A stretch of DNA of 64,000 nt from an uncultured Coriobacteriaceae bacterium. GTDB lineage: Bacteria; Actinomycetota; Coriobacteriia; Coriobacteriales; Atopobiaceae. Shown here in pieces: positions 7,300 through 64,000 of this stretch (within the stretch, counting starts at the first letter, position 1; every line of letters begins with the position of its first letter). Under the pieces are notes generated by a model. The model had not been told where the DNA came from and did not search any database. It was given only the letters and a program-made list of their open reading frames with translations. Made by a program: the position numbers and the translations under genes. The DNA lies in contig UQSV01000001.1 in NCBI GenBank assembly GCA_900543875.1, forward strand, positions 16,662 through 80,661. Reading direction: 5' to 3'.

Positions 7300-7407
7300 T
7301 CCGCATCGACACACCGCCTCTAAAACTCGAGGAAGATGCTGCGATACACTCGTTGCTGCACAATTTCGTGCATTGCCTCACTAACGTCACGCCAGAAAGG
7401 CCGCGAC

Positions 7408-8466: not shown

Positions 8467-8487
8467 GCACGAGCCTCATACATACGT

Positions 8488-8532
8488 AAAGAGGGGAGTA
8501 GCGAACCCATGTTCGCTACTCCCCTCTTCTAT
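8488..8532 (+). terminator. Rho-independent terminator after rlmN
   Basis: Hairpin GAGGGGAGTAGCGAACCCATGTTCGCTACTCCCCTC followed by TTCTATT. Confidence 0.7.
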
Positions 8533-8783
8533 TATATGTTTCCACAGCTAGAAGCCTATGTTCTTCCATTGCTGGTCTACCCATTCCCTATTTTCTCTTG
8601 CAGCCTGCTCACTCGAGTATTGCAAGGCGGGCTCCATATAGCCCCTCAAGAGATACAGGGCGAGGTCAGACGTAACGCGTCCTGCTTGGCGCACACTATC
8701 ACGCGCGCGCTCATCAAGCAGAACCTTCCAGACAAGCGAGCAGCCTGCCGAGGCAACAGCGAGGCTTCTCAGAGCTCGGGTCG

Positions 8784-9665: not shown

Positions 9666-10458
9666 GACGAATCACCTCTCTAGCAAGTCCACGGTAGGCA
9701 ATGGCACCCTTATTCGTTGCAGAGTACATTGCAATCGGCAGACCATGGCTTGGAGCCTCAGAAATCTTGATGCTTCGAGGAATCAGAGTCTTGAACATCT
9801 TGTTTCCAAAGTACTTCTTTACTTCTTCAACAACCTCGTTAGAAAGCGTAGTGCGCTTGTCATACATTGTCATGAGCACGCCAAAGACGTCAAGATCCCT
9901 ATTCAGACTCGACTTAACGAGCTTCATCGATTCAAGAAGCTTCGTTACGCCTTCGAGTGCGTAGTACTCGCACTGAATCGGAATTAGCAAGCCGCTTGCT
10001 GCACATAGAGCGTTAATTGTCAGAAGGCCAAGTGAGGGAGGGCAGTCGATGAAAACGTAATCGAACTCATCCTTAACCTCATCAATGAGATTCTTGAGAA
10101 TGCTTTCGCGTGCAATCTTGCTCACAAGCTCAATTTCCGCACCCGCAAGCTGAATAGTTGCAGGAACAACAAACACACGAGATTCTGGAGTATCGACAAT
10201 GAGGTCACTGATTGGATAACCGTCGAGAAGAGCGTCATAAATGTCGTGATCGAGCTCATCCTTGTCGATACCATAGCCACTTGTTGTGTTTCCCTGAGGG
10301 TCAAAATCAATAACTAGGCACTTCTTGCGCTCTTCTCCAAGAGCTGCAGACAGGTTAATTGCAGTTGTCGACTTTCCGACGCCACCTTTTTGGTTGATAA
10401 TTGCCAGAACCTTGGTAGGCTTCGTGGGATTGCTGCGTTTTACGTCCTTATAACCCAT
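9658..10458 (-). CDS. parA: Chromosome partitioning ATPase ParA (Soj)
   Basis: Deviant Walker A KGGVGKST. Low GC. Confidence 0.9.
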   Translation of the reverse strand: MGYKDVKRSNPTKPTKVLAIINQKGGVGKSTTAINLSAALGEERKKCLVIDFDPQGNTTSGYGIDKDELDHDIYDALLDGYPISDLIVDTPESRVFVVPATIQLAGAEIELVSKIARESILKNLIDEVKDEFDYVFIDCPPSLGLLTINALCAASGLLIPIQCEYYALEGVTKLLESMKLVKSSLNRDLDVFGVLMTMYDKRTTLSNEVVEEVKKYFGNKMFKTLIPRSIKISEAPSHGLPIAMYSATNKGAIAYRGLAREVIRRG

Positions 10459-10490
10459 TACTTTCCAATCTACCAGTCGATTTGCTCCAC

Positions 10491-10506
10491 TGTTTCACGT
10501 GAAACA
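10491..10506. promoter_or_regulatory. parS: parS centromere site, perfect palindrome TGTTTCACGTGAAACA
   Basis: Exact match to the canonical parS consensus. Lies 2 bp from the rsmG stop, between rsmG and parA. Confidence 0.85.
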
Positions 10507-10507
10507 C

Positions 10508-11353
10508 TCATCGATTAGCCAGTGGATGATTTCGAGCCTCGCCGTTCTTTCTTGGTAGCTTTACTCTACTCTTCTTAACCTTCTTGTATACAAAGATCTC
10601 TCTATGTCCCAAATCATTTGGAAGTTCGAATGTTTCACGTGAAACATTCTCAAAACCGCACATCTGTGCAACCTTAGATGCATCAGCAAGCTCTTCGTGC
10701 TCAGGATTCGCCTTTCCAAAGAAGAGATAGCCACCCTTCTTAACGTAAGGCTCAGCATATTCAATCAAAATGTCGAGCTTTGCTAGAGCACGCGCAGTCA
10801 CACCATCATAGATGCGACCAGAAGTCTTAACGAATTCTTCGAGACGCCCATGATAAGCAGAAACCCTGTCAGACATACCAAGCTCGTCAACAAACTCTTT
10901 GCATGCGTTGACCTTCTTGCCAACAGAGTCAAGTAAGTCAATGTCAAACTCACTGACGCAAGCAAGAGGAATACCAGGAAAGCCACCACCGGTACCCATA
11001 TCAAGGAAACGAGCTCGTTGGTTAAGACCGATGGCCTCAGAGATAACCTTTGCAAACAGAAGTGAATCAAAAGCATGGAGGATAAGACCATCAGGCATCG
11101 TTCGAATGCTCGTAAGGTTAACGACCTCGTTCTTCTTATACATGAGATAGAGATCTGCAATAACCATCTCAATCTGAGAATTGGTCAAATTGAGTGAATA
11201 GCTGTCAGACATCTCCTGAAGCGTTCTAAGGGCATCTTTAACAGTATAGGTGGAATTAGTCACGAAAGTTGTTTTCGTGTCACAGAGAGCCTCTGAGAGA
11301 CTCGAATTTAGTTCTTTGAACTCTCTTTGACTTAAAGTCATGAAGCTACCCAA
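10508..11353 (-). CDS. rsmG: 16S rRNA m7G527 methyltransferase RsmG (GidB)
   Basis: SAM-binding motif LDMGTGGGFPGIPLA. About 40% GC. Confidence 0.85.
   Translation of the reverse strand: MGSFMTLSQREFKELNSSLSEALCDTKTTFVTNSTYTVKDALRTLQEMSDSYSLNLTNSQIEMVIADLYLMYKKNEVVNLTSIRTMPDGLILHAFDSLLFAKVISEAIGLNQRARFLDMGTGGGFPGIPLACVSEFDIDLLDSVGKKVNACKEFVDELGMSDRVSAYHGRLEEFVKTSGRIYDGVTARALAKLDILIEYAEPYVKKGGYLFFGKANPEHEELADASKVAQMCGFENVSRETFELPNDLGHREIFVYKKVKKSRVKLPRKNGEARNHPLANR
10631..10646. promoter_or_regulatory. parS: Second perfect parS site (TGTTTCACGTGAAACA) inside the rsmG coding sequence
   Basis: Exact palindrome. Confidence 0.85.
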
Positions 11354-11939
11354 TCACTTTGACAAAACTTCCCGAGACGGGAACTCTTGTCAGGAACTTA
11401 TGTCTGAGTTTGATTGAGCTGCGAATGCTTCTAGTCTACTTGAAGTAGGGTCACCAAGCTGGAAATGTTCGGAGAATTACAGAGCTTGGAAATGGCCAGA
11501 TTAACTAGGTCCTAAAGCCCACTAGAGACCAGATACATATCGAGCCAAACCTAGCGTTCACTTCCGGCATGGCACAAAGCCAGAAACATAGAGAAATCAT
11601 CAAGCCGCCAAAGCAGTCAGAGCCACTCGAGACATTGAGAGAGCTATAAGAAGACTTGCGGATGAAGTACAGTTTACAGGTAGACAGGGGGCCAGAATCA
11701 ATAACCTCATAGCTATCAAGCGGAGCTGATTAGATACCAGATACGGCAACCAAGTATCGAGGGCAGCCCCAACCAAAGACTCGTCTCATCTATCAAATCT
11801 CAAGACGCGCAGCAGCTTGAACAAACTATACCGCACGCGCAACAACAAAGATGTGCGCAAACGGCTATCGATTCACATGAAAAGGACGCGGTATATCTCT
11901 GACACAAAAGAGCCACCGAGAGCCGCATCAGTTAGCACA

Positions 11940-11978
11940 CAAAAAAAGGAGGCCCGAAGGCCTCCCAGTAAAACTCCG
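11940..11978 (-). terminator. Minus-strand terminator downstream of jag
   Basis: GGAGGCCCGAAGGCCTCC hairpin followed by an A-run on the plus strand, which is a T-run on the minus strand. Confidence 0.55.
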
Positions 11979-12024
11979 AGTACTAAACCCAGCCCAGAAC
12001 TACGCAAACGGCACCGCGCGCAGG

Positions 12025-12576
12025 CTATTCACCCTTAACCGGAGTGATGACAACATAGCGCTCGGGATCGGTGCCCTCAGAGTGAGTCGTCACCTCAACG
12101 GAGTCCCTCAGGGCAAGGTGAACCAGACGGCGCTCATAGGCATTCATAGGGGCAAGGCGCATAGCGCGGCCAGACTTCACGGCCTTCTGGGCGCTGGAGC
12201 GAGCCATACCCTGGACCTTGTCCCTGCGACGGCTCTTATAGCCCTCGATGTCGACAACGATGGGATAGTGGAAGCCGATACGCTTGTTGAGAAGCGAGGT
12301 AAAGACAACCTGCAGGGCATCGAGGGTGACACCGTGACGACCAATGAGGATGGCAAGGTCGCCGCCGCTCACGTCGAGGATGAGCTCGCCCTCGTCGCCA
12401 TCATACTCATCAATCGAACAGGTGTTCTCGCCAAAGCAGGCGAGCAGGGAGCGCAGAATCTCAATGGCAACGTCGGCCACGACGTCGAGCTGCTCGTCCT
12501 CAAGCTCGCCCTTCTCCTCAAAGGCGGCCTTGATGGCCTCGAACTCAGCGCCCTTCTCCTGCATTTCCTCACTCAT
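12025..12576 (-). CDS. jag: Jag/KhpB RNA-binding protein (KH + R3H domains)
   Basis: R3H-like C-terminus NAYERRLVHLAL. Conserved position after yidC. Confidence 0.7.
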   Translation of the reverse strand: MSEEMQEKGAEFEAIKAAFEEKGELEDEQLDVVADVAIEILRSLLACFGENTCSIDEYDGDEGELILDVSGGDLAILIGRHGVTLDALQVVFTSLLNKRIGFHYPIVVDIEGYKSRRRDKVQGMARSSAQKAVKSGRAMRLAPMNAYERRLVHLALRDSVEVTTHSEGTDPERYVVITPVKGE

Positions 12577-26870: not shown

Positions 26871-27082
26871 TTTTCAAATTTTCTTACCAGGCCCCCTTCA
26901 GTTACAGTGAGGTATAACGGCAATTGGACGCCCGCGAGGCGCTGGTGCGCTGTAGCCGCGTTGTCAGCTTGAACCCGCCCTCGTCCCGCGCCACCCGATT
27001 AGTTTGGGACAACTGTTGCGTTTTACTGTCTCCCGATGCAAATGCTATGGGAGAAAGGCGAAAAGAGAAGAGGGGGTCCAGG

Positions 27083-28546
27083 ATGAGCGAGGCCAGCAAA
27101 TCCCGCCGCACTGGCTTTCCTTATGCCGCTTCCTGGCCCCTCTTGATTGAGACGGCGGCCTTTGCGCTCTACTTCTTCACCTGGAAGCTCTGTATGGCCG
27201 TGACGCTTGCCCGTGCGCCTCGTTTGGCGGAGGTTGGCGTCCTTGGTTCTGCATATGCGCTCCTGCTGGCTTTCACGGGCCTTGGCTATGTCCTGTTCTG
27301 GGTTGCCCGCTCCTATCTGCCTAGCTCAAAAGAGAAGAAGAGCTTGGCGGCGGTCGTCCTCGCGCTCTGTTTCGGCGGCTCCATCGTGATGATGACCACC
27401 CAACGCATCGAGATCCTTCTCGCTGCGAGTTGCGTGACGGTTCTTGCGCTCGGCTACACCGGCGGCGGTATTCACTACGGATTTAGCCTGGTGTCTTATG
27501 GCAGCGAATTCTCCGGCAGGGCCCTCGGAATTGGGATGGGTGCGTCTTCCCTGCTTCAATATGTTGTAGAGGCGATGGGGCTGACACCCGCTGTGCTTGT
27601 CATATGCGTGGTCTTGAGTTTGCTCACCATCATGTGGTTCGCCACGCGCCCCGCCAAGAGGTGGCGGGGCGATCAGGACTCCGCCGCGAAGCAGGCTCCC
27701 ACCGTGGGGAGGCGCCCTATCACCATCCTCGTGATCGCCGCGGTTGCCATGACCCTCGACTATGGTCTTCTCGATAGCGTTCTCGTCTGGAAGTATGCGA
27801 GTGGCGAGATCGTCACTGCGGGTCTGTCTAAGATCATCAATGCGCTGTCCCTCCCGCTTGTGGGTGCGCTCTTTGACCTAAAGAAGGGTAATCTCAGGTC
27901 CCTCATCACGGTGTGCGCGATGTTTCTCGTCGCTGTGGCAACGCCCGCCGCCGCGGAGGACGAGTGGGCGGGTGTGGCCACCGTCATGGCGGGGGTCTAC
28001 GGTGCCTTCTACGTCATGTATCTCAGTGCGACCTTCATGAGAATCGCGCCGGATACGTCGCGCCCGGAGGTCATCGCGAGCGTGGGTAGAGTCGTCAGCT
28101 GCTTCATGGGTGCCGTTGGTGCGTTGTTCGCGCGGGCTTTCTTCGAGTCTTGTGGCGTGGTGGCGGTGGTGGGCGTGTCGTGCCTGCTTTCGATCATCTG
28201 CCTTCTGGTCCTTCTTCGTGACATTGCCTGGGGCGTCACGAAGGGCCTGGGGGGGGGGGAGGATGGCGCGGCGTTTGGCGGTGGCCTTCCGCGGCCTTCC
28301 GGCTCGTCTCGCGAGGAGGCTCTCGATACTTATATTGAGAAGCTCGGCCTTACCGCCCGAGAGGCGGAGGTGTGTGGTCTTCTCCTTTCCACAGACCTTG
28401 GCGTTCAGGAGATAGCCGACGAGATTTTCATCTCTCGGCGCGTCGCTCAGCGACACATCGCCGCCATTTATGAGAAGGCAGAAGTGACAACGCGACTTGG
28501 TCTCTATCGCGATTTTGTCGCCTGGTTTGACGAGGGTTCCAACTAA
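27083..28546 (+). CDS. Membrane-embedded LuxR-family transcriptional regulator (about 12 TM helices plus a C-terminal LuxR HTH)
   Basis: C-terminus LTAREAEVCGLLLSTDLGVQEIADEIFISRRVAQRHIAAIYEKAEV is a LuxR-type HTH. Many hydrophobic segments. RBS GAGAAGAGGGGG. Confidence 0.7.
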   Translation: MSEASKSRRTGFPYAASWPLLIETAAFALYFFTWKLCMAVTLARAPRLAEVGVLGSAYALLLAFTGLGYVLFWVARSYLPSSKEKKSLAAVVLALCFGGSIVMMTTQRIEILLAASCVTVLALGYTGGGIHYGFSLVSYGSEFSGRALGIGMGASSLLQYVVEAMGLTPAVLVICVVLSLLTIMWFATRPAKRWRGDQDSAAKQAPTVGRRPITILVIAAVAMTLDYGLLDSVLVWKYASGEIVTAGLSKIINALSLPLVGALFDLKKGNLRSLITVCAMFLVAVATPAAAEDEWAGVATVMAGVYGAFYVMYLSATFMRIAPDTSRPEVIASVGRVVSCFMGAVGALFARAFFESCGVVAVVGVSCLLSIICLLVLLRDIAWGVTKGLGGGEDGAAFGGGLPRPSGSSREEALDTYIEKLGLTAREAEVCGLLLSTDLGVQEIADEIFISRRVAQRHIAAIYEKAEVTTRLGLYRDFVAWFDEGSN

Positions 28547-45728: not shown

Positions 45729-45809
45729 TGACCCGCGATGTTAGGAGCGCCCACAGCTTGTTGGCGTATACTCAAATGGTTTGCTAAGCCGTGAGAGAAG
45801 GAGCTCTTC

Positions 45810-47096
45810 ATGCCGGCATCTGTTCTGGTGGGAACCCAGTGGGGCGACGAGGGCAAGGGTAAGATCACCGACCTCATCTCCGGTGGCTTCGATGTGGTCT
45901 GTCGCTATGGCGGCGGTGCCAACGCCGGCCACTCGGTTGTCGCCAATGGTCACCACCTCGCACTTCGCCAGATTCCGTCTGGCATCGTCCACGAGGACGT
46001 CCTTTCCATCATCGGCAACGGCTGCATCGTCGATCCCGTGGTCGTTCTCGAGGAGCTCGAGCACCTCAAGGGCGAGGGCCTTTCCTGCAAGGGCCTGCGC
46101 ATCTCGGGCAACGCTCACATCGTCATGCCCTGGCACAAGGTTCTCGACGGCGCCCACGAGCAGAAGCTCGGCAAGAACAACATCGGCACCACGAAGCGTG
46201 GCATCGGTCCCTGCTACATGGACAAGATGAACCGCACGGGCATTCGCATGCAGGACATGCTCGATGACGACACCTTCCGCGAGAAGGTCGAGGCGTCGCT
46301 CGCCTACCAGAACCCCATCCTCGAGAAGGTCTACGAGTTGCCCACCTATGACGTGGACGCCGTGTGCGAGGAGTTCCTCGGCTATGCCGAGCAGCTGCGT
46401 CCCTACATCATCGAGAGCGGCAAGCTACTCAACGAGGAGCTTGCCGAGGGCAAGAAGGTCCTGTTCGAGGGTGCCCAGGCCACGATGCTCGACATCGACC
46501 ACGGCACCTACCCGTTCGTGACCTCCTCCAACTGCACGGCTGGTGGCGCGGTTACCGGCTCCGGCGTTGGCCCCACCAACATCGACCGCGTGCTGGGTAT
46601 CGCGAAGGCCTACCTCACGCGCGTGGGCTCGGGCCCGTTCCCCACGGAGCTGAGCCTTGACGAGGGTATGGGCAAGTTCCTGCTGGAGACCGGCCACGAG
46701 TACGGCGTGGTCACGGGCCGCAAGCGCCGCTGCGGCTGGTACGACGCCGTGGTGGTCAAGTACGCCGCGCAGGTCAACGGCCTCACCGACCTCGCCATCA
46801 CCAAGCTCGACGTGCTCACAGGCCTTGACACCATCAAGGTCTGCACCGCCTACGAGTGCGATGGCGTGGAGTACACGACGGTTCCCGAGCACCGCTCGGT
46901 CTTCGACCACGCCAAGCCCAAGTACGTTGAGGTCCCAGGCTGGAAGGAAGACATCACCGGCTGCAGGAGCTTTGACGAGCTGCCCAAGGCCGCGCAGGAC
47001 TACATCGAGCTCATCGAGAAGCTCAGCGGCGTGAAGGTCTCCTTCGTTGCCGTGGGTCCCGACCGCGAGCAGACGATCAACCGCTTCTGGGAGTAG
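45810..47096 (+). CDS. purA: Adenylosuccinate synthetase
   Basis: GTQWGDEGKGK P-loop. Confidence 0.95.
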   Translation: MPASVLVGTQWGDEGKGKITDLISGGFDVVCRYGGGANAGHSVVANGHHLALRQIPSGIVHEDVLSIIGNGCIVDPVVVLEELEHLKGEGLSCKGLRISGNAHIVMPWHKVLDGAHEQKLGKNNIGTTKRGIGPCYMDKMNRTGIRMQDMLDDDTFREKVEASLAYQNPILEKVYELPTYDVDAVCEEFLGYAEQLRPYIIESGKLLNEELAEGKKVLFEGAQATMLDIDHGTYPFVTSSNCTAGGAVTGSGVGPTNIDRVLGIAKAYLTRVGSGPFPTELSLDEGMGKFLLETGHEYGVVTGRKRRCGWYDAVVVKYAAQVNGLTDLAITKLDVLTGLDTIKVCTAYECDGVEYTTVPEHRSVFDHAKPKYVEVPGWKEDITGCRSFDELPKAAQDYIELIEKLSGVKVSFVAVGPDREQTINRFWE

Positions 47097-47113
47097 AGGC
47101 AAGTTAGCAAGTC

Positions 47114-47160
47114 CAGGCGGGCTCGGCAGACATGGCCGGGCCCGCCTTTGGTTTTATGCG
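47114..47160 (+). terminator. Terminator after purA
   Basis: GGCGGGCTCGGCAGACATGGCCGGGCCCGCC followed by TTTGGTTTT. Confidence 0.75.
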
Positions 47161-47242
47161 CGTTACGACCGTGCCACGTGCGCGGACGCGGCGCTACGAT
47201 AGGCGTTGGGAAATAACAGAGAGCCGACGATCAGGAGCAACC

Positions 47243-48544
47243 ATGGACGCATCCGAGAAGATCGACATCCTCCTTCTGGGCGCGGGCGGGCGCGAGCACG
47301 CCCTCCTGCGCAAGCTGCTCGAGAGCCCGCGCGCGGGCAAGGTCTGGGCGGCGCCGGGCAACGGCGGCATCCTCGCCGAGGCCGCCTATGCCGACATCGA
47401 CCAGGAGAACCCGCAGCAGGTGGCCGACTTCGCCACTGGGCATGGCGTGAGCCTCGTGGTCATTGGCCCCGAGGCCCCGCTCGTCGCCGGCGTGGCCGAC
47501 GCGGTGCGTGCCGCGGGCATCGCCTGCTTTGGCCCAAGCGGCGCGGCCGCCCAGATGGAGGGCTCCAAGCTCTTTGCCAAACAGGTCATGGAGCGCGCCG
47601 GCGTTCCCACGGCCCGCTACGCGAGCTTCACCGAGGCGGCTCCCGCCGAGGCCTACGTGCGCGAGCTCGCCGGTCCCTGCGTCGTGAAGGCCGACGGCCT
47701 CGCCGCGGGCAAGGGCGTCATCGTGGCGCAGACCACCGAGGAGGCCCTGGCTGGCGTGCGCGAGTGCTTCGCGGGCACGTTTGGCGAGGCGGGCAGCACC
47801 GTCGTGGTCGAGGAGATGCTCAAGGGCCCCGAGTGCTCGCTTCTGGCCCTCACCGACGGCAAGACGGTCGTTCCGCTCGCGAGCTCGCAGGACCACAAGC
47901 GCGCCCTCGAGGGCGACCTCGGTCCCAACACGGGCGGCATGGGAGTCTACTCGCCCGTCCCATTCGTGACGCCCGAGGAGCACGAGGCCATGGTCGAGAT
48001 CGAGCGCAAGGTCGTGGCCCAGCTCGCGAAGGACGGCATCACCTACTCCGGCTGCCTCTACGGCGGCTTCATGCTCACCAAGGACGGCCCGAAGGTGCTC
48101 GAGTTCAACGCGCGCTTTGGTGACCCGGAGACGCAGGTCGTGCTGCCGCGCATGAAGGCCGACCTTCTCGACGTCTTCCTGCGCTGCGACAACGGCACGC
48201 TCGACGAGGCCAACGTGAGCTGGGACGACGACTGGGCCGTCTCGGTGGTGCTCACGAGCGCGGGCTACCCCGGCTCCTACGAGAAGGGCAAGCCCATCCG
48301 CGGCATCGCCGACGCCGAGGCGCTCGAGGGCGTCACGGTCTACCACGCCGGCACCAAGCTGGTGGGCGGCGAGCTCGTCACCAACGGCGGGCGCGTGCTC
48401 AATGTCACGGCCGTTGCCGACACCTTCGAGCACGCTCGCGAGCAGGCATATCGAGCCTGCGAGCTCATCGATTTTGAGGGAAAGACGCTGCGTCACGACA
48501 TCGGGGCGCGCGCCCTGCGAGGCCGCGACGCCTGGGAGGTCTAG
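47243..48544 (+). CDS. purD: Phosphoribosylamine--glycine ligase
   Basis: [14 protein letters not shown]-terminus. ATP-grasp fold. Confidence 0.9.
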
Positions 48545-51050: not shown

Positions 51051-51185
51051 GTTTCGAGCGTATGTAGCTTGAGCGTAACCGCGCCGGGCCTTAAGGAAAC
51101 CTCCAAGCCCGCTGCCTATACTGTTCTGCGACTAATCCGACACCACGCGGCCAGCCGGCTGCCGATATGCCTTACGAGGAAGAGC

Positions 51186-52031
51186 ATGGCAAAGAAGGAC
51201 AAGAGTGCTAACGTTCCCACCCCCGACGAGGTCGAGGCCATCTTCGCCGACGTCGACGAGACGGGCCACACGAACGCGTCGAAGGCCCGCAAGGAGCACG
51301 GCCGCCGCCGCGCCCGCAAGGCCGCCGTCGAGGTCGATCCCCTCTCGGGCGACGATCCGTCCGGCTCGAGCGTGGGCAAGGTCATGACGCGCACCGCCGT
51401 CGTGGTCGTCGCTATCATGCTCGTCCTCGTGGTGCTCTCGCAGGTGGCCTGCGGCCTCGTGCGCCGCGCGGGCACCTCGCAGCTCGCCGAGCACGTCGAC
51501 TCCGCGAGCGTGTCGCTCGCACTTAAGAACGGCGTCGAGTGGGGCGACGGCTTCACGCAGTTCCCCGAGGATTACACCGTGCTCGAGGCCAACGAGGAGT
51601 CCGGCCGCATCGAGGTGAGCGTCGTCGACACCTCGGCCAAGGACGAGCTCGAGTGCCTCGCCGGCTCGCAGATCCAGGCCGCCGCCCTCTCCGTGAACGC
51701 CCTGCTCAACCCCAACATCAACCAGGTCGTCTACCATGTCGACGTCCACATCGACGAGGACGGCAAGATCCAGCAGTCGTCGCTGTTTGGCTTCCTCAAG
51801 CCCACGGGCATCATGAAGCGCTTCGCCACCTTCGTGTGGACCAAGAGCTCCGGCGCCGACGGCGGCTTCAACTTCAACTGCATGATCACCGACATCGATG
51901 CCACCGCCTCGGAGAACCTGCGCCAGAAGGTCACCCTGCCGCGCAACATCATCGACGCCGTGATGGGTGAGGCCGCGACCACGAGCGCGGCCGCCACCGA
52001 CACCGCTACCACCGAGACGGCCGCGGAGTAG
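51186..52031 (+). CDS. Hypothetical membrane-anchored protein
   Basis: Single TM helix (AVVVVAIMLVLVVL). RBS GAGGAAG. Confidence 0.5.
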   Translation: MAKKDKSANVPTPDEVEAIFADVDETGHTNASKARKEHGRRRARKAAVEVDPLSGDDPSGSSVGKVMTRTAVVVVAIMLVLVVLSQVACGLVRRAGTSQLAEHVDSASVSLALKNGVEWGDGFTQFPEDYTVLEANEESGRIEVSVVDTSAKDELECLAGSQIQAAALSVNALLNPNINQVVYHVDVHIDEDGKIQQSSLFGFLKPTGIMKRFATFVWTKSSGADGGFNFNCMITDIDATASENLRQKVTLPRNIIDAVMGEAATTSAAATDTATTETAAE

Positions 52032-52035
52032 CCAC

Positions 52036-52908
52036 GTGAGCGACGCCTCTTCCTTGCGCCTCTACCAGCGGCAGGGCAACTACCTGCCGCGCGTTGCCGC
52101 CGTGCACGACCTGTGCGGCTACGGCAAGTGCTCGCTGGGCATCGCGATCCCTGTGCTCTCGTGCGCGGGCATCGACGTGTGCCCCGTGCCCACGTCGCTC
52201 TTCTCGGGTCACACCAAGTTCGACCACTTCTACAAGCTCGACACCACGCCCATGCTGGAGCCCTACCTCGATGCCTGGCGCGCCCATGGCATCGCCCTCG
52301 ATGGCGTCTACTCGGGCTTTCTTGGGTCGGCCGAGCAGGTCGCCACGATCGAGCGGCTCTACCGCGAATACCCGCGGGCCCTGCGCATCGTTGACCCCGT
52401 GATGGGCGACGGCGGCCACAAGTACCCCACCTACACCGACGAGATGTGCGAGGCCACCCGCGCGCTCGTGGCAAGCGCCGACGTGCTCACCCCCAACCTC
52501 ACCGAAGCCTCGATCCTTACGGGCATCGCCTACGAGGGCCAGGACGTCGACGAGGCCTACGTGGCGCGCGTGCTCGACGCCCTGCTTGCCATGGGCGCCA
52601 AGAACGTCGTGCTCAAGGGCATCGTCCATGAGGGGGACAACCTCATTCGCAACTATGTGGCCAGCGAGGGCGCGCCCGTGGCCGAGGTGGCTGGCGACCT
52701 GCTGCCATTTATGACGCACGGCACGGGAGACCTGTTTGCGAGTGGCCTCACGGCGGCGATCTTTGCGGGCAAGAGCCTGCTCGAGGCGGTGCGCTTTGCC
52801 GGCGCCCTCGTGCGCGATGCCATGGCCATCACGCCCGACCAACCCGATTACGAGGTGCGCGGCGTGAGCTTCGAGTCTGTTCTCGGAGACGTTACGGCTC
52901 TTATCTAG
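52036..52908 (+). CDS. pdxK: Pyridoxal / pyridoxamine kinase (ribokinase superfamily)
   Basis: VAAVHDLCGYGKCSL N-terminal motif and GTGDLF. Likely GTG start. Confidence 0.7.
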   Translation: MSDASSLRLYQRQGNYLPRVAAVHDLCGYGKCSLGIAIPVLSCAGIDVCPVPTSLFSGHTKFDHFYKLDTTPMLEPYLDAWRAHGIALDGVYSGFLGSAEQVATIERLYREYPRALRIVDPVMGDGGHKYPTYTDEMCEATRALVASADVLTPNLTEASILTGIAYEGQDVDEAYVARVLDALLAMGAKNVVLKGIVHEGDNLIRNYVASEGAPVAEVAGDLLPFMTHGTGDLFASGLTAAIFAGKSLLEAVRFAGALVRDAMAITPDQPDYEVRGVSFESVLGDVTALI

Positions 52909-52998
52909 GTTCCAAAAAAATGCTGTTCGCGACTATACTGAGAGACTGTGCGCATTGCGCGAAGTCATCACATGCGGTTCCAATTCAAGGGAGCGAAC

Positions 52999-53460
52999 AT
53001 GGCAGACAAGCCGCTCGTTGGCATCATTATGGGTTCAAAGTCTGATATGCCCACCATGGAGGCGTGCACCAAGCAGCTCGAGGAGCTCGGCGTTCCGTAC
53101 GAGCTCGTCATCGCGAGCGCCCACCGCACCCCCGACAAGGTCCACGAGTGGGCCGCGAGTGCCGCGGACCGTGGCCTCAAGGTCATCATCGCCGCCGCCG
53201 GCAAGGCCGCGCACCTGGGTGGCGTCGTTGCCGCCTATACCCCGCTGCCCATCGTGGGCGTGCCCATGAAGACGAGCGACCTGGGCGGCATGGACTCCCT
53301 GCTCTCCATGGTGCAGATGCCCAGTGGCGTGCCCGTTGCCTGCGTTGCCATTGGTGGCGCCAAGAACGCCGCCATCTACGCCACGCAGATTCTGGGCGCC
53401 ACGATGCCCGAGTATCGCGAGAAGATGGTCGAGTTCAAGCGCGCCATGGCGCAGGGTTAG
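52999..53460 (+). CDS. purE: N5-carboxyaminoimidazole ribonucleotide mutase
   Basis: VGIIMGSKSD...ASAHRTP motif. Confidence 0.9.
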   Translation: MADKPLVGIIMGSKSDMPTMEACTKQLEELGVPYELVIASAHRTPDKVHEWAASAADRGLKVIIAAAGKAAHLGGVVAAYTPLPIVGVPMKTSDLGGMDSLLSMVQMPSGVPVACVAIGGAKNAAIYATQILGATMPEYREKMVEFKRAMAQG

Positions 53461-53469
53461 GCCCGGCAG

Positions 53470-54507
53470 ATGGCAAACGCGTCGAGCGGCAAGCACTTTA
53501 GGCAGGCAGGGGAGGCGGCCCCGCGCGCCGCAGCGCCGCAGCACACCCAGGCCATGCCCGCGCCTGGCGAGAGCAACCCCTATGCGTCTAACACGGGAAA
53601 CGCCGTGGGGTTTGTCTCGACAAGGCCCGCCTCCAAGGGGGCTGACCATGCCAAGGCACCACGGGGCGGTCGCAAGCAGTCCAAGCGCTCCAAGCGGGCT
53701 GACCAGGGTGGCAAGCCGCGTCGCCGCGCCAACGTCCTCTCGACGGTCCTCATCGTCATTGGCGTCGTGCTGCTTCTCGTTGCCGGCGGCATGTGGGGCT
53801 ATGCCCAGTGGCAGTACCACGTGCAGGACGTCAACAACGAGAAGCTCGCCGCCTACGCTACTGTCTCCGACGATGCGGCCAGCGCCCCCACGATTGATTG
53901 GGAGGGCCTCAAGGCCGTGAACGCCGACGTCTGCGGCTGGATCTACATCCCGGCCACGCACGTCGACTTCCCGGTCTACCAGGGCCAGACCAACGACACC
54001 TATCTGCGCACCTCGGCCACGGGCGAGTACGCGGTGGGTGGGCAGATCTTCATGGACTGCGAGAACAGCCGCCCCGGCCTCGTTGACCGCCAGACCCTCA
54101 TCTACGGCCACCACCTCAACAACGGCGCGATGTTCACCGACATCGACGACATGGCGACCCAGGACAACTTCGACAAGGTCGACACGGTCTGGTACCTCAC
54201 CGAGGACGCGAGCTACGAGCTCGAGCCGCTGTTCTTCTACAAGAGCGCGGCCACCAACGGCGCCGCCCGCCAGATCACCTTTGCCTCCGATGACGACTTC
54301 CACGCCTACCTGGCAGACGCCCTCTCCCAGGCAACGGCCCAGCGCGCGGGCGCGAGCGGCTCGGTCAACAACATCTCCAAGGTGCTCACGCTGTGCACCT
54401 GCGACTACGAGAACGACTTTGGCAAGGGCAACGGTCGAGGCCTGCTCGTCTGTGCCCTCAAGAGCGAGGTGTCCAACACCACATCGTCTGACGTATCAGC
54501 CAGCTAG
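53470..54507 (+). CDS. srtB: Sortase, class-B-like (N-terminal TM anchor), embedded in the purine operon
   Basis: Catalytic TLCTC motif (VLTLCTCDY), His in LIYGHHLN, conserved Arg (GRGLLV). TM helix VLSTVLIVIGVVLLLVAGG. Confidence 0.75.
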   Translation: MANASSGKHFRQAGEAAPRAAAPQHTQAMPAPGESNPYASNTGNAVGFVSTRPASKGADHAKAPRGGRKQSKRSKRADQGGKPRRRANVLSTVLIVIGVVLLLVAGGMWGYAQWQYHVQDVNNEKLAAYATVSDDAASAPTIDWEGLKAVNADVCGWIYIPATHVDFPVYQGQTNDTYLRTSATGEYAVGGQIFMDCENSRPGLVDRQTLIYGHHLNNGAMFTDIDDMATQDNFDKVDTVWYLTEDASYELEPLFFYKSAATNGAARQITFASDDDFHAYLADALSQATAQRAGASGSVNNISKVLTLCTCDYENDFGKGNGRGLLVCALKSEVSNTTSSDVSAS

Positions 54508-54521
54508 CGGAGGGGAACCGC

Positions 54522-56081
54522 ATGTCTGACCGTTCGATGTACGAGTACGAGAGCTGCGAGGCAATCGAGGACGAGGACGTCCTGCACGACGAGTGCGGCG
54601 TCTTTGGCATCTGGGCGCCGGGCCGCGACGTGGCCCGCATGACCTACTTTGCCCTGCATGCCCTGCAGCACCGAGGCCAGGAGAGCGCCGGCATCGCCGT
54701 GGGCGATGGCAGCACCGTCATGGTGCGCAAGGACCTGGGCCTCGTTACGCAGGTCTTCAGCGACTCAGACCTCTCGGCCCTGCCCGGCAAGGTCGCCATT
54801 GGCCACGTGCGCTATGGCACGGCTGGCTCCAAGGGTTGGGAGAGCGCCCAGCCGCACCTCTCGGCCATTAATGACGTCATCATCGCGCTGGCCCACAACG
54901 GCACGCTCGTCAACTTTGATCAGCTGCGCATCGAGCTCATCAACATGGGCGTGCCCTTCCGTACCCACACCGACTCCGAGGTCGCCGCCCGCCTCATCGG
55001 CTTCTTCACCGAGAAGAAGCACCAGCTGCGCGCTGGCATCGCCCACGCCATGGCAATGATGGAGGGCGGCTACGCGATGGCCCTCGTGCGTGACAACGCG
55101 CTCTATGCCTTCCGCGACCCGCACGGCATCCGCCCGCTGTGCCTGGGCAAGCTGGCTGACGACCAGGGCTGGGTCGTGGCGAGCGAGACCTGCGCCCTCG
55201 ACATCGTGGGCGCCGAGTTCGTGCGCGACGTGAACCCCGGCGAGATTATCCGCATCTCCGACGACGGCATCTCGTCGTCCCAGGCGCTCGAGACCGAGGC
55301 GCGTGCCGAGTGCATCTTCGAGCACGTCTACTTTGCGCGCCCCGACTCGCGCTTCCACGGCAAGAGCGTCTACTCCATGCGCTACAACATGGGTCGCCGC
55401 CTGGCGCAGGAGGCCCCGGCCGACGTCGACCTCGTGATTGGCGTGCCCGACTCGGGCCTGCCGCCTGCGGAGGGCTTTGCCCATGAGCTGGGACTTCCCT
55501 TTGGCGAGGGTCTCATCAAGAACCGCTATGTTGCCCGCACCTTCATTCAGCCCACGCAGGAGCTGCGCGAGATGGGCGTGCGCCTCAAGCTCAACGCCCT
55601 CATCGACAACGTGGCCGGCAAGCGCCTCGTGGTGGTAGACGACTCGATCGTGCGCGGCACCACCTCCAAGCAGATCGTCCGTATGCTCAAGGACGCTGGC
55701 GCCACCGAGGTTCACATGCGCATCAACTCGCCCGAGGTCACGTGGCCGTGCTTCTATGGCATCGATACCGATACCCAGGACCAGCTCATCTCGGCGAGCA
55801 AGTCCGTCGAGGAGATCTGCGAGTACATCGGCGCGGACTCCCTGGCGTTCCTCTCGCCCGAGGGTCTGCGCGCCTGCGTGCCCGACCTCTCTGGCTGCGC
55901 GGGGTGCGCCGCTGGCCGGAGCGGCTACTGCGAGGCCTGCTTCACCGGCGAGTACCCAGTCGAGATTCCGGCGAGCTTCTCGAAGGGCAAGTTCCTCGAG
56001 GGCTATACGCCGCGCAACCTTGCCACCGCCCGCGCCGCGTCGAAGATGCATGTAGACGACGTGGCCGAGGCCAACCTCTAA
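54522..56081 (+). CDS. purF: Amidophosphoribosyltransferase
   Basis: N-terminal CGVFGIW active-site Cys. PRTase motif VVDDSIVRGTT. Confidence 0.95.
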   Translation: MSDRSMYEYESCEAIEDEDVLHDECGVFGIWAPGRDVARMTYFALHALQHRGQESAGIAVGDGSTVMVRKDLGLVTQVFSDSDLSALPGKVAIGHVRYGTAGSKGWESAQPHLSAINDVIIALAHNGTLVNFDQLRIELINMGVPFRTHTDSEVAARLIGFFTEKKHQLRAGIAHAMAMMEGGYAMALVRDNALYAFRDPHGIRPLCLGKLADDQGWVVASETCALDIVGAEFVRDVNPGEIIRISDDGISSSQALETEARAECIFEHVYFARPDSRFHGKSVYSMRYNMGRRLAQEAPADVDLVIGVPDSGLPPAEGFAHELGLPFGEGLIKNRYVARTFIQPTQELREMGVRLKLNALIDNVAGKRLVVVDDSIVRGTTSKQIVRMLKDAGATEVHMRINSPEVTWPCFYGIDTDTQDQLISASKSVEEICEYIGADSLAFLSPEGLRACVPDLSGCAGCAAGRSGYCEACFTGEYPVEIPASFSKGKFLEGYTPRNLATARAASKMHVDDVAEANL

Positions 56082-56190
56082 CTTGGTATTACGCGCGCCG
56101 CCGGCAGACGTCCGGCGGCGCTGCGCCTTGCGTGCGGCATGCCTTGCGCGCGAGGCGGCTCGATTGTCCCAACCCACGAAAGGACCTCTC

Positions 56191-57288
56191 ATGAGCACTG
56201 ACAAGCACGTGACCTACGAGGACGCCGGCGTTGACACCGCCGAGGGCGGCCGCGCGGTCGACGCCATCAAGCAGATGGTTAAGGAGACGAATCGACCCGA
56301 GGTCATCGGCGGCATCGGCGGCTTTGGCGGCCTGTTCTCCGCCGCCGCCCTCAAGGACATGGAGGACCCGATTCTCATCTCGGGCACCGACGGCGTGGGC
56401 ACCAAGCTTGTGCTGGCGCAGCTGCTCGACCGCCACGAGACCGTGGGCCAGGATCTCGTGGCCATGTGCGTCAACGACATCCTCGCCTCGGGCGCCGAGC
56501 CGCTGTTCTTCCTCGACTACGTGGCGATTGGTCACATCGAGGCCGAGCACATGGCAAAGATCGTGAAGGGCGTGGCCGATGGCTGCAAGCTCGCCGGTTG
56601 CGCGCTCGTGGGCGGCGAGATGGCCGAGCACCCCGGCGTCATGCGTCCGGACGACTACGACCTCGCGGGCTTCACTGTGGGCGCCGTCGACCGTCCCAAG
56701 ATGCTCGACCCTGCAAACGTCAAGGCGGGTGACGTCATTATCGGCCTGCCCTCGACGGGCGTGCACTCCAACGGCTACTCGCTCGTGCGCAAGGTCATTG
56801 GCGTCGACGGCATCGTGCCAGGCACGCCCGAGGCCGAGGCCAAGCGCGCCGAGCTCGAGGCGCCCCTGGCCGAGCTGGGCAACAAGTCGCTGGCAGACGC
56901 CCTGCTCGCCCCCACGCGCATCTACGTGAAGCCCGTCCTCGAGCTGCTGCGCAGCGGGGTTGCCCCGGTCCACGCCATTGCCCACATCACGGGCGGCGGC
57001 ATCACCGAGAACCTCAACCGCGCGCTTGCCGCCGACGTCGACGCCGTGGTCGACCGCCCGAGCGGCCAGGTTGCCTGGGACGTTCCGCCCGTCATCACCT
57101 ACGTGGCCGAGCACGCGGGCCTCACGCCCGACGAGGCGTGCAAGACGTTCAACATGGGCGTGGGCCTGTGCCTGATCGTCGATGCGGCCGACGAGACGGC
57201 CGTGGTGGCCAAGCTCGAGGAGCTCGGCGAGCACCCGTTCCGCGTGGGCGAGTGCGTGCCGGGTGAGGGCAAGGTGACCTACCGATGA
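56191..57288 (+). CDS. purM: Phosphoribosylformylglycinamidine cyclo-ligase (AIR synthetase)
   Basis: Conserved N-terminus MSTDKHVTYEDAGVD. Confidence 0.9.
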   Translation: MSTDKHVTYEDAGVDTAEGGRAVDAIKQMVKETNRPEVIGGIGGFGGLFSAAALKDMEDPILISGTDGVGTKLVLAQLLDRHETVGQDLVAMCVNDILASGAEPLFFLDYVAIGHIEAEHMAKIVKGVADGCKLAGCALVGGEMAEHPGVMRPDDYDLAGFTVGAVDRPKMLDPANVKAGDVIIGLPSTGVHSNGYSLVRKVIGVDGIVPGTPEAEAKRAELEAPLAELGNKSLADALLAPTRIYVKPVLELLRSGVAPVHAIAHITGGGITENLNRALAADVDAVVDRPSGQVAWDVPPVITYVAEHAGLTPDEACKTFNMGVGLCLIVDAADETAVVAKLEELGEHPFRVGECVPGEGKVTYR

Positions 57289-57905
57289 GCGAGGCGCTCA
57301 AGATTGGCGTGCTGCTGAGTGGAAGCGGCACCAACCTGCAGGCCATCATCGACCGCATTGCCGATGGCAGCCTCAACGCGAGCATCGAGCTCGTGGTGTC
57401 GAGCCGCCCGAGCGCCTATGGCCTCAAGCGCGCCGAGGCCGCAGGTCTGCAGACCCTCACCCTCTCCAAGGAGATCTACGCCGACCCCGAGCAGGCCGAC
57501 GAGATTATCGCCGCCGAGCTCAAGAGCCATGGCTGCGAGTACGTGATCATGGCCGGCTACATGCGCATGGTCCACGCGCCGCTGCTCGCGAGCTATCCCA
57601 ACCGCGTGGTGAACCTGCACCCGGCGCTGCTGCCGAGCTTCCGCGGTGCGCACGCCATCCAGGACGCGTACGACCGCGGCGTCAAGGTCACGGGCGTCAC
57701 CGTGCACTTTGCCAACGAGGAGTACGACAAGGGCCCCATCATCGCCCAGCGCGCGCTGGTGGTGGGGGAGGGTTGGAGCGTGGATGAGCTTGAGGAGCAC
57801 ATCCACGCCATCGAGCACGAGCTCTACCCCGAGGTCATTGGCTGGCTCGCCGCCGGCCGAGTGCATGTGAGGGACAACCTCACGGTGAGCGTCGACCCGG
57901 AGTAG
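57285..57905 (+). CDS. purN: Phosphoribosylglycinamide formyltransferase
   Basis: GVLLSGSGTNLQAI and HPALLPSFRG motifs. Confidence 0.9.
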   Translation: MSEALKIGVLLSGSGTNLQAIIDRIADGSLNASIELVVSSRPSAYGLKRAEAAGLQTLTLSKEIYADPEQADEIIAAELKSHGCEYVIMAGYMRMVHAPLLASYPNRVVNLHPALLPSFRGAHAIQDAYDRGVKVTGVTVHFANEEYDKGPIIAQRALVVGEGWSVDELEEHIHAIEHELYPEVIGWLAAGRVHVRDNLTVSVDPE

Positions 57906-57908
57906 ACT

Positions 57909-58003
57909 TGCCTGGGACAATAACTCTGGAGGGTATTGTCCCACTGTGTGATGGTTCGAATAGCAGAAGACCCCCGCGTACCAGCAGATACGCGGGGGTC
58001 TTG
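57909..58003. terminator. Two hairpins between the convergent purN and rlmD-like genes, probably bidirectional terminators
   Basis: GGGACAATA...TATTGTCCC and GACCCCCGCGTA...TACGCGGGGGTC. Confidence 0.65.
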
Positions 58004-58129
58004 CCTATTAGTATTGTTCTTATTTTGTCTTCTCACTTGGTGGGAGAGGTGAGAAAAGAGTGCCGAAGCCGAGCGATGAGGCGATAAAGCTCCGGGCTAA
58101 TTGATCCCGGCTGCGGACGCGTCCGTTTG

Positions 58130-59350
58130 TTACGCCCTCGCCAGCACGGCGACGGTCTCGGCGTGCTTGGTGTGGGGGAACATGTCCACCACGTCGAGCC
58201 GCTCGATGCGGTAGCCGCCCTCGTAGAAGAGGTCGAGGTCGCGGCGCTGGGTCACGGGGTTGCAGCTCACGTAGACCACGCGCGAAGGCGCAAGGCCCAG
58301 CACGCCGTTGATGAACGTGGGCGTGGAGCCCGCGCGCGGCGGGTCCATGATGACTACGTCAAAACCCTCGCGGCCGGCCTTGGCCACGTCCTTCATGTAG
58401 GCGGTGGCGTCGGCGCAGACGAACTTGCAGCGGGCGGCCAGGCCGTTTCGCCTCGCGTTGGCGCGGGCGTTTGCCACCGCGCCCTCGACCTGCTCGACCC
58501 CCACGACCTCAAGGCCGTCGACCTGCCTGGCCGCGCACATGCCAATCGTGCCAATGCCGCAGTAGGCGTCGAGCACGCGCTGCCCGCGCTCGAGCTGCGC
58601 CCCCTCGATGGCAAGTGAGTAGAGCACCTCGGTCTGCGCGGGGTTGGTCTGGTAGAACGACGTGGGGCCAATCTCGAACTCGCAGCCCAGGAGCTCGTCG
58701 ACCATGCGCCCGCTGCCGTAGAGCGCGCGGGCCTCGTGACCCAAGATCGCGTTGGTGCGGCGCTGGTTTACGTTCTGTGCAATGGCGGTGACAAACGGCG
58801 CTCGGCGCAGGATGGTGCTCACAAACTGGTGCTCGCGCGGAATCTGCTTGCCGTTGGTGACGATGGTGAGCAGGCACTCGTTGGTGGCATACCCCATCCG
58901 TACCACGGCGTGGCGCAGAAGGCCGCGACCGTGGTCCTCGTCGTAGGGGGCAATGCGCAGCTCCTCGGCGGCACGCGCCACCGCAAGCAGCGCTTCGCGG
59001 GCGTGCGGCGCCTCGACGATGCAGTTCGAGCAGGGCACGATGCGATGCGTCCCGCGGGCGTAGAAGCCCGAGCGTACGCTCGCGCGCTTGCCGGCCGCAA
59101 AGGGCGTCGCCGCCTTGTGGCGGTAGCCGCGCGGCTCCATGCCCTCGGCGTCCATGCCGTGGATGGGGATGAGGTCGTCAAGGTCGTCCTCGGTGGCACC
59201 CTCGGGCAAATAATCCGCCATGAGCTCGGCGATCTGCGCCTGCTTGCGGCGCAGCTGGATGGGATAGGGAACGGCCAGCCACTCGCATCCTCCGCACGAC
59301 TTTGCGATTGGGCACGTGTAGGTCTTGAATCCCATATCTCTCCTGCTCAA
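58130..59350 (-). CDS. rlmD: 23S rRNA (uracil-C5)-methyltransferase RlmD/RumA family (TRAM + FeS + SAM-dependent methyltransferase)
   Basis: Cys cluster CPIAKSCGGCEW. Class I methyltransferase motifs. Confidence 0.8.
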   Translation of the reverse strand: MSRRDMGFKTYTCPIAKSCGGCEWLAVPYPIQLRRKQAQIAELMADYLPEGATEDDLDDLIPIHGMDAEGMEPRGYRHKAATPFAAGKRASVRSGFYARGTHRIVPCSNCIVEAPHAREALLAVARAAEELRIAPYDEDHGRGLLRHAVVRMGYATNECLLTIVTNGKQIPREHQFVSTILRRAPFVTAIAQNVNQRRTNAILGHEARALYGSGRMVDELLGCEFEIGPTSFYQTNPAQTEVLYSLAIEGAQLERGQRVLDAYCGIGTIGMCAARQVDGLEVVGVEQVEGAVANARANARRNGLAARCKFVCADATAYMKDVAKAGREGFDVVIMDPPRAGSTPTFINGVLGLAPSRVVYVSCNPVTQRRDLDLFYEGGYRIERLDVVDMFPHTKHAETVAVLARA

Positions 59351-63800: not shown

Positions 63801-64000
63801 GTTCCGTCGAGGGCGACAACCCCACGTTCACCAACTCCTACACCGCTCCCAAGCAGGAGAAGGACAACGACGAGGGCGATGACAACCAGGGTGGCGCCCA
63901 GCAGGGCAACGACAAGCAGATGCCCCAGACGGGCGACACCAACAACGCCACCGTCCCCGTTGTGCTTGGTGCTGCCGCTGTGATCTGCGTGGCCGCCGGC
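60809..64000 (+). CDS. Second sortase-anchored vWA adhesin (signal peptide, vWA, Ig-like modules, MPQTG sorting signal), 3' end truncated by the window
   Basis: Signal peptide MERRKTRRWGGVLACALTAALALVLGVALPATQAYA. MIDAS motif VVLAIDTSGSM. MPQTG at 63919-63933 followed by a hydrophobic stretch. Confidence 0.85.
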   Translation, partial: MERRKTRRWGGVLACALTAALALVLGVALPATQAYATDVSLDEPDHAKTVTDNGDGTYRLSLTVKGDSQSSSENTPADVVLAIDTSGSMNDNGKLDNVKRAAKALIDELLTDDNAKLDASKQIQVSVISFDTRADTPTSFTANADDATQAIDGLKAEGGTNWEEALQKANAQNSGRTDSRKYVVFFSDGAPTYRISSVQTGTKLVFSFSEGFHKVPAYDQDDTWATPRGVHGSGNDDPYNANYNSAVTEANKRDVDTVQLFAVSGDTSANASMTKFANDVTGDFLDGTDADKLNDAFAEIAQTITNSCYYRDVKVVDQLSDYVDFKDAVSADGTLASATITKTDASGTSPVAGAVAKVDGKKLTVDLSGEGELEAGATYTVSFDIKPTADAYDAIAAGTLTNPVPTNVNSDHDATTLEYKTVTKRTGAADVVSDTLYADYDIPTISLPTKQLTVTKTWENARDDARATQPVHVQVTRNGADYGTPVELSASNNWTGTVTVTGNPADASAWGARETDGDLSSYTTNVAVDGLNLSVTNTHKAWSVTVDGATELAGTKTLTGRTLVADEFSFTITPCDGAPAPTKTTATNDAAGNFHFGDITFDAPGTYYYDVAEVTDGLDKKGITAQTSALQVKIDVVEKDGALVAQVSLPEGGLAFANAYKPSDATVNVMAFKRLACNQEGVKAPDLKAGDFSFTITGNGPLPAATTVFNDEAGNVSFGAITFTKADLGGEMSKTFTYQVSESGSKAGVTNDSDKTFTVTVRDNADGTMTAEMSPIDPFVNTYAAESANYSVSNDITMSKQLDGRALEAGDFTFELVDANGKQAATATNDANGTVVFKNVTYTTPGEYTYTVREVNDGKGGVIYDASTYQVKVTVADNGKGQLVAKASSDADAIVFKNSYAAAPASVSLSATKVLEGAQLTDDQFGFEVLNKGQVVARGKNAADGTVSFGALALNQPGTYSFQICEVNDGQQGVTYDGSSHDVKVVVTDDGKGQLTVSSVEGDNPTFTNSYTAPKQEKDNDEGDDNQGGAQQGNDKQMPQTGDTNNATVPVVLGAAAVICVAAG

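Follow-up and report, generated by a model that had tools for sequence, protein, structure and literature searches.

The window analysed here is a 64-kb stretch of contig UQSV01000001.1 from an uncultured Coriobacteriaceae bacterium, and the element in question is a sortase gene (srt) that lies within a string of purine biosynthesis genes. Five co-directional open reading frames (ORFs) on the plus strand span positions 52999-57905 and were assigned to purE, the sortase, purF, purM, and purN (Table 1). An earlier sequence-only reading of the locus, covering 52999-56081, had described a class-B-like sortase with a basic cytoplasmic tail, a membrane anchor, and TLCTC, His, and Arg motifs. It had taken the gene not to be a recent insertion and had suggested that its placement ties adhesin display to purine limitation.

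A sortase gene between purE and purF

The products of purE, purF, purM, and purN each scored above the equivalog cut-offs of NCBIfam. The TAG stop codon of purE is separated from the ATG of the sortase gene by 9 bp (GCCCGGCAG), and the TAG of the sortase gene from the purF ATG by 14 bp, with a GGAGGGG Shine-Dalgarno sequence within the latter spacer. The junction gaps along the whole string are 9, 14, 109, and -4 bp. The GC content and the GC content at third codon positions (GC3) of the sortase gene (0.655 and 0.879) are close to those of purE (0.656 and 0.864) and purF (0.662 and 0.892).

The sortase matched the Pfam family PF04203 (Sortase; MEROPS C60) with 40.4 bits against a cut-off of 26.6 bits (E = 2.9e-10), and the NCBIfam model TIGR03064 (sortase_srtB) with 148.7 bits (E = 1.6e-43), a score 5 bits short of the equivalog cut-off of 153.75 bits. 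The models of other sortase classes scored far lower, with 24.2 bits for class C and 23.4 bits for class E. At these E-values the family match lies far beyond what sequence comparison would give by chance. When the protein was compared with the PDB sequences by phmmer, the best 15 matches consisted of class B sortases and of the Streptococcus pyogenes pilus sortase Spy0129, which is of the class B type (E 5e-23 to 9e-15). Among them were Listeria monocytogenes Lmo2181, Staphylococcus aureus SrtB, and enzymes of Bacillus anthracis, Clostridium perfringens, and Clostridioides difficile. The homologues carry the name 'class B sortase' at NCBI and JGI.

An AlphaFold2 (AF2) model built on 90 homologues had a predicted local distance difference test (pLDDT) score above 90 over the catalytic domain (residues ~140-330). 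Residues 1-77 were disordered, and a long helix (87-127) preceded the barrel. In a Foldseek comparison of this model with the PDB, the top 19 structures were all of class B (E 7e-19 to 5e-13, target TM-score 0.67-0.90), and class C and A sortases first appeared at E ~4e-7, about six orders of magnitude behind. A helix at 274-286 lies between strands 248-259 and 288-291/305-312; it was assigned to the class B beta6/beta7 position by its place in the chain and not by superposition. The best matches in both sequence and structure were the SrtB enzymes of S. aureus, B. anthracis, and L. monocytogenes (TIGR03064; PDB 1ng5, 2oqw, 5jcv; phmmer E 5e-23 to 7e-20, Foldseek E ~1e-18 to 5e-16), which have in common with the enzyme of the window the YGHH and TL(S/C)TC motifs and the helix at the beta6/beta7-loop position. 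By sequence and predicted fold, the ORF groups with the class B sortases.

The catalytic motifs are YGHH at residues 212-215, TLCTC at 307-311, and GRGLL at 322-326, the last containing Arg323. His214, His215, Thr310, Cys311, and Arg323 were invariant across the 90 homologues, and Cys311 and the YGHH histidines aligned with the TLSTC and YGHH motifs of S. aureus SrtB in the phmmer alignment. On these grounds the sortase looks catalytically competent. Residues 1-88 contain 17 K/R as opposed to 4 D/E residues and have a pI of 11.8. This tail is followed by the most hydrophobic stretch of the protein (residues 89-107), which coincides with the start of the predicted 87-127 helix and would serve as the transmembrane (TM) anchor; the order of the two fits the positive-inside rule. 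The protein is thus predicted to be a working, membrane-anchored enzyme of N-in topology, with an 88-residue disordered basic tail in the cytoplasm, a single TM helix, and, outside the cell, a beta-barrel with His214/215, Cys311, and Arg323.

The extreme N-terminus carries a conserved motif (Table 1). This motif takes the form MASHFK or MAKHFK in the majority of relatives and that of xGKHF in the window, and its His9 was conserved in at least 90% of the sequences in both alignments. The motif precedes the variable, disordered, basic tail, in which some lineages share the additional motifs DPYD and GGDESYHAP. The long disordered cytoplasmic tail and the conserved N-terminal motif are unusual for class B sortases.

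Table 1. Features of the sortase locus and candidate substrate genes in the 64-kb window (L081 is the locus of a relative).
Feature	Position	Strand	Evidence or remark
TATACT -10-like promoter box	52934-52939	+	59 nt upstream of the purE ATG; recurs across related loci
purE (N5-CAIR mutase), first gene of the predicted operon	52999-53460	+	TIGR01162, 197.7 bits (cut-off 149.6); PF00731, E = 8e-63
Class-B-type sortase, 345 aa	53470-54507	+	profile matches, PDB sequence matches, homologue alignment, AF2 model, Foldseek
N-terminal motif of the sortase, MANASSGKHFR	53470-53502	+	family consensus [GS]-[KRS]-H-F-[KR]; alignments of 27 and 90 sequences
purF (amidophosphoribosyltransferase)	54522-56081	+	TIGR01134, 520 bits
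GC-rich hairpin in the purF-purM spacer (109 bp, 56082-56190)	56095-56121	+	inverted repeat GCGCCGCCGG/CCGGCGGCGC, no T-run after it
purM	56191-57288	+	TIGR00878, 388.7 bits; start agrees with the gene call of L081
purN	57285-57905	+	TIGR00639, 209.8 bits; 4-nt overlap between its start and the purM stop
Perfect 14-bp-stem hairpin and T-rich tract, 3' of purN	57967-58002		inverted repeat
Candidate substrate 1, surface protein of ~2,480-2,500 aa	28579-36090	+	signal peptide, VWA, DUF7601, 11 FctA/Spy0128-like isopeptide domains
Candidate substrate 2, VWA/Cna_B/FctA surface protein of 1,072 aa	60809-64000	+	MPQTGD at 63920-63937

Conservation and predicted transcription of the gene string

Two independent samples of related loci, numbered with the prefix L, were compared with the window. 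For the sortase-anchored sample, a scan with one genome per species gave 303 relatives, and the best 80 of these were taken, which include Parolsenella, Olsenella, Tractidigestivibacter, Thermophilibacter, Atopobium, and related metagenome-assembled genomes. The gene directly upstream of the sortase was purE in 76 of these 80 loci, and the remaining four end before purE. Directly downstream, wherever the contig reaches that far, stood purF or, in six species, purM. At the latter loci (L014, L018, L037, L065, L069, L078) srt lies directly before purM, with no purF at the site. The second sample was anchored on purE in a scan of metagenomes and is free of sortase bias; a locus was counted if 900 bp or more of sequence followed purE. 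A sortase was the next gene in 24 of the 25 loci with a purE at least 79% identical to that of the window, in one of the 26 loci at 68-78%, and in none of the 15 loci below 68%. The middle group is Eggerthellaceae, its purE matching proteins named Raoultibacter and Adlercreutzia. Collinsella aerofaciens belongs to the first group and has a sortase ~35% identical to that of the window, located 35 bp after purE. The sole exception in that group, L091, seems to represent a relative of Collinsella in which the segment with the sortase was lost.

No remnant of a sortase was found near the Raoultibacter purE, which stands alone (L163/L164). In the ~1.1 kb that follow this purE, which include an N-run and PE repeats, no gene was called, and the region downstream of purE (6471-12471) holds a VanW-domain gene, a PRC-domain gene, and genes of giant CLIPPER-repeat surface proteins (2,907 and 3,580 aa). 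Several of the most distant low-GC loci, with purE less than 60% identical, have a plain purE-purF-purM-purN order. Canonical purEFMN operons (low-GC loci L142, L145, L147, L149) have the same four genes in the same order and orientation as the window, but no sortase between purE and purF. The version found in Atopobiaceae and Coriobacteriaceae has acquired one, together with YqeY-like or MoaE-like genes in some sub-lineages.

Across the 80 sortase-anchored loci, sortase identity correlated with purF and purE identity (Spearman 0.56 and 0.58, respectively), which fits vertical co-inheritance. The purE-srt synteny is present in both families and essentially absent from the Eggerthellaceae, which places the insertion of the sortase before the split of Atopobiaceae and Coriobacteriaceae; the Eggerthellaceae would either never have had it or have lost it. 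A recent horizontal insertion was rejected, since GC and GC3 equal those of the neighbours, the position is kept in more than 100 loci, and the divergence of the sortase tracks that of purE and purF. The sequence-only reading thus proved right in this respect, and its description of the tail, the anchor, the motifs, the two short gaps, and the placement of the gene in a pur string with operon-typical spacing also stood, the placement being conserved across two families and the class B assignment being upheld by the subfamily profiles, the AF2 model, and Foldseek.

The TATACT box upstream of purE emerged from the comparison of loci and not from a scan for sigma-70 sites. Only four TATACT sites occur in the 64-kb window, two of the others lying just upstream of purA (45767-45772) and of a membrane-protein gene at ~51.1 kb. 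Nearly all related loci have the box as well, ~30-65 nt before purE or, in a few, up to ~120 nt before it, and only three occurrences in total were found inside purE to purN over the 80 loci. The sigma-70 consensus scan gave a single promoter-like site, on the wrong strand, and is uninformative for a high-GC organism. Terminator-like matches were at or below the level expected from shuffled sequence in the terminator scan, and no inverted repeats were found at the purE-srt and srt-purF junctions. The hairpin in the purF-purM spacer could be a processing or attenuation site. The hairpin after purN is likely to act as a bidirectional terminator between purN and a convergent methyltransferase gene.

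Among the relatives, the start could be resolved in 65 loci, and in 43 of these no more than 30 bp separate purE from srt. The predicted srt stop and purF start overlap by 4 nt in seven loci, and in another 12 the overlap is 28-31 nt; the starts of purF were assigned automatically. The genes purE, purF, purM, and purN display the usual marks of an operon, i.e., they are co-directional, their junctions are short or overlapping, TATACT occurs only upstream, and a hairpin follows downstream. As the TATACT box is conserved before purE and essentially missing inside the string, and as a strong hairpin follows purN, co-transcription of purE-srt-purF-purM-purN appears likely.

The wider surroundings contain further purine genes. 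The genes purA (adenylosuccinate synthetase) and purD (GARS) occupy 45810-48544, some 5-7 kb ahead of purE. NUDIX and ABC-transporter genes come after them, so that the purine genes form a loose cluster over ~12 kb. The membrane-protein gene at 51069-52031 (plus strand), here called hyp320, probably starts at ~51186 (MAKKDK...). Its product has a basic N-terminus in the cytoplasm, a single TM segment, and a domain outside the cell, and it matched no family of Pfam or NCBIfam. The gene is kept upstream of purE in most Atopobiaceae and Coriobacteriaceae loci, and a TATACT box of its own lies at 51117. Between hyp320 and purE lies a pyridoxamine-kinase-like gene (pdxK; 52063-52908, plus strand), which is co-directional with purE in the window and in L001 and on the opposite strand in most relatives, indicating a local inversion. 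The stretch from this gene to the purE promoter showed no terminator-like site.

Candidate substrates and the probable role of the enzyme

Two surface proteins encoded in the window bear classical tripartite sorting signals. Candidate substrate 1 ends in IPQTGD, a hydrophobic stretch, and KRGKRG. Just upstream of its gene, a 540-aa protein with a C-terminal LuxR/GerE helix-turn-helix is encoded (26924-28546, plus strand). The gene of candidate substrate 2 begins ~3 kb downstream of the pur operon and extends 27 nt beyond the end of the window; it is present at full length in L081 (17340-20558). Proteins with LPQTGD, IPNTGD, VPETGD, VPDTGD, and LPTTND were found in related loci. In L108, the gene of a 1,231-aa IPNTGD surface protein ends ~200 bp upstream of purE. 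Candidate substrate genes lie within a few kb of the sortase gene in the window, L108, L002, L015, and L074; no sortase gene dedicated to them stands next to any of the sorting-signal genes in the window or the related loci. No second sortase was found in the 64-kb window or in any of the 12-kb loci.

From the signals of these proteins, we infer that the enzyme most likely cleaves [ILMV]-P-x-T-G-D sequences and links the proteins, including the two giant VWA/FctA adhesins of the window, to the cell wall. The simplest reading would then be that this class B enzyme serves [ILMV]PxTGD proteins in general as their anchoring sortase, in the manner of a housekeeping enzyme.

C. difficile SrtB provides the precedent for such a role, being a class B sortase that acts as a general anchoring enzyme on (S/P)PxTG signals. 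The two enzymes (PDB 4ux7, 5gyj for C. difficile) share the class B fold and the His-Cys-Arg catalytic set, their likely substrates carry xPxTG-type signals and not NPQTN, and neither is located in an isd-type substrate locus. In contrast to C. difficile SrtB, the enzyme of the window is actinobacterial, has the 88-aa disordered basic tail with the conserved N-terminal motif, has [ILMV]PxTGD candidate signals, and is encoded within the purE operon. The SrtB enzymes of S. aureus, B. anthracis, and L. monocytogenes are iron-regulated, have short N-termini, and are encoded in isd or svpA loci beside substrates with NPQTN, NPKTG, or NxxTN signals. The enzyme of the window differs from them in its location in a purine operon and in the above-mentioned 5 bits that separate it from the equivalog cut-off.

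The FctA domains of the candidate substrates raise another possibility, namely that the enzyme, like Spy0129, polymerises FctA-domain proteins into pili while another sortase anchors them. The candidate substrates are rich in FctA/Spy0128-like domains, and Spy0129 (3psq) was among both the structural and the sequence matches. However, it was not the closest match, the FctA proteins are single giant multi-domain adhesins (~2,500 and 1,072 aa) and not pilin-sized, and the sortase is neither encoded beside them nor accompanied by a pilin gene cluster. A function in pilus polymerisation is therefore highly improbable.

Probable operon membership, a possible purine link, and meaning

As a whole, the locus is best explained by a class-B-type anchoring sortase that is an ancient member of the purE operon and cleaves [ILMV]PxTGD signals, a reading to which we assign a probability of roughly 70%. 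The sortase gene would be a vertically inherited, integral part of the purE-(srt)-purF-purM-purN operon in Atopobiaceae and Coriobacteriaceae, most likely transcribed from the TATACT box just upstream of purE to the hairpin after purN. Its position would probably be an ancient insertion that became fixed and that gives growth-linked expression.

Several observations weigh against this explanation. The purE-srt gap is 230-570 bp in some lineages (230-300 bp in some Atopobium), and a promoter of another type may lie inside the 3' end of purE. The loci of the Tractidigestivibacter group have a YqeY-like gene (PF09424) that separates purE from srt (L015, 5473-5964; likewise L012, L016, L020, L021, L024, L028, L044, L052). 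In C. aerofaciens, a MoaE-like gene and a reverse-strand gene of a CmpB-type membrane protein stand between srt and purF; this Collinsella-type order of purE, sortase, MoaE-like ORF, reverse CmpB-type gene, and purF is seen in L108 (4501-7600) and also in L093-L110. In view of the wide gaps, the YqeY-like insert, and the Collinsella break, the gene string is not a fixed single unit everywhere. The entire neighbourhood from hyp320 and pdxK through purE and beyond is syntenic, so conservation by itself is no proof of selection for co-expression. Regarding the enzyme, the srtB score falls below the equivalog cut-off, and the candidate signals are LPXTG-like and not the NPX[TS][NGS] of classical SrtB. 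The functional definition of class B, i.e., NPX[TS][NGS] substrates encoded adjacent to an often iron-regulated sortase, does not describe this locus, where pur genes flank the sortase and the candidate signals are [ILMV]PxTGD. Finally, the substrate assignment and the housekeeping label are tentative, the search for other sortases having covered the 64-kb window and the 12-kb loci.

Some of these observations would also suit a sortase gene that has its own promoter and owes its position only to frozen gene order in a highly syntenic region. The neighbourhood from hyp320 to purN is conserved as a whole, other unrelated genes have been inserted at the site, some lineages have the wide gaps, and the simple promoter scan says little in a high-GC organism. 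On the other hand, a 9-bp gap is too small for an intergenic promoter, the TATACT box that precedes purE, purA, and hyp320 is not found in the purE coding region, no hairpin follows purE, and the predicted srt/purF stop-start overlaps in relatives argue for a single mRNA. We therefore regard an independently transcribed neighbour as unlikely and favour the co-transcribed, integral operon member.

Operon membership leads to the question of whether purines control the sortase. One can envisage that purines repress the operon and that starvation raises the sortase level and hence the display of adhesins or of wall-anchored nucleotide-scavenging enzymes, in parallel to the iron-regulated SrtB/Isd system. 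The purE-srt pairing persists in two families even where purF has been lost or displaced, as in the six srt-purM loci and Collinsella, nutrient-regulated loci such as S. aureus isd are the classical setting of class B sortases, and PurR of S. aureus also controls fibronectin-binding adhesins. Against this stands the region 52600-58200, in which no Rfam match was found either in gathering mode or at E-values up to 1; on this basis, a structured RNA such as a riboswitch was rejected for both the leader and the junctions. The 5' leader is ~30-65 nt in most loci and thus too short for a riboswitch. No operator shared across the aligned leaders was seen by eye, and as no formal motif discovery or PurR-box scan was included, protein operators are possible. 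The candidate substrates are of the adhesin type (VWA, FctA, Cna_B, and repeat proteins) and include no nucleotidase or nuclease. Substrates of these two kinds were rejected as an explanation of the link, since the sampled proteins with cell wall sorting signals are adhesin-like. Moreover, sortases are rarely rate-limiting for display. Purine-regulated display is accordingly distinctly unlikely.

A dedicated purine-sensing link is not in evidence, and with no riboswitch or recognisable purine-sensing element the connection from purines to adhesins is speculative. The tie between adhesin display and purine limitation proposed in the sequence-only reading has so far found no support, the short leader, the empty Rfam search, and the lack of a shared operator by eye all speaking against it, as do the unrelated genes inserted in the operon and the reverse-strand gene that separates purF from srt in Collinsella. 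That the same operon has accepted the YqeY-like and MoaE-like genes in sub-lineages fits passive fixation. The purE-srt pairing, on the other hand, has been kept in several lineages where purF was lost or displaced, which is mildly suggestive of selection. It is conceivable, if quite improbable, that purE and the sortase form a selected functional unit, in which a purine-biosynthesis promoter sets the expression of the main anchoring enzyme and the adhesin coat or wall-anchored scavenging enzymes follow the purine availability in the host. If true, such a system in Atopobiaceae and Coriobacteriaceae such as Collinsella, Olsenella, and Parolsenella would be the purine counterpart of SrtB/Isd, which is regulated by iron, and the conserved N-terminal motif of the sortase might then provide a second control input from inside the cell.

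Full-text literature searches turned up neither a pur operon with a sortase gene in it nor any work on Atopobiaceae or Coriobacteriaceae sortases; giant LPXTG proteins have been mentioned in Adlercreutzia (PMC3778203). The conserved residence in the purE operon, the long tail with its N-terminal motif, and the set of LPXTG-like signals thus appear to be undescribed. The enzyme itself is a lineage-specific class B sortase, and annotation pipelines already name its homologues so. For a specialist, the conserved synteny would be of interest as an oddity and as a lead that can be tested, though not as a great surprise.

The human gut, mouth, and vagina are commonly inhabited by Collinsella, Olsenella, Atopobium, and related bacteria, whose surface biology has, to our knowledge, hardly been studied. 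The sortase described here is the probable main protein-anchoring enzyme of this group, with [ILMV]PxTGD as its likely sorting signal, and its gene has travelled with purE since before Atopobiaceae and Coriobacteriaceae diverged. Should the co-transcription have a physiological meaning, nucleotide metabolism and host adhesion would be connected through it; otherwise, the locus would be a clean case of an unrelated gene fixed within a core metabolic operon, and the purE-srt pair would serve as a handy synteny marker that tells Atopobiaceae and Coriobacteriaceae from Eggerthellaceae.

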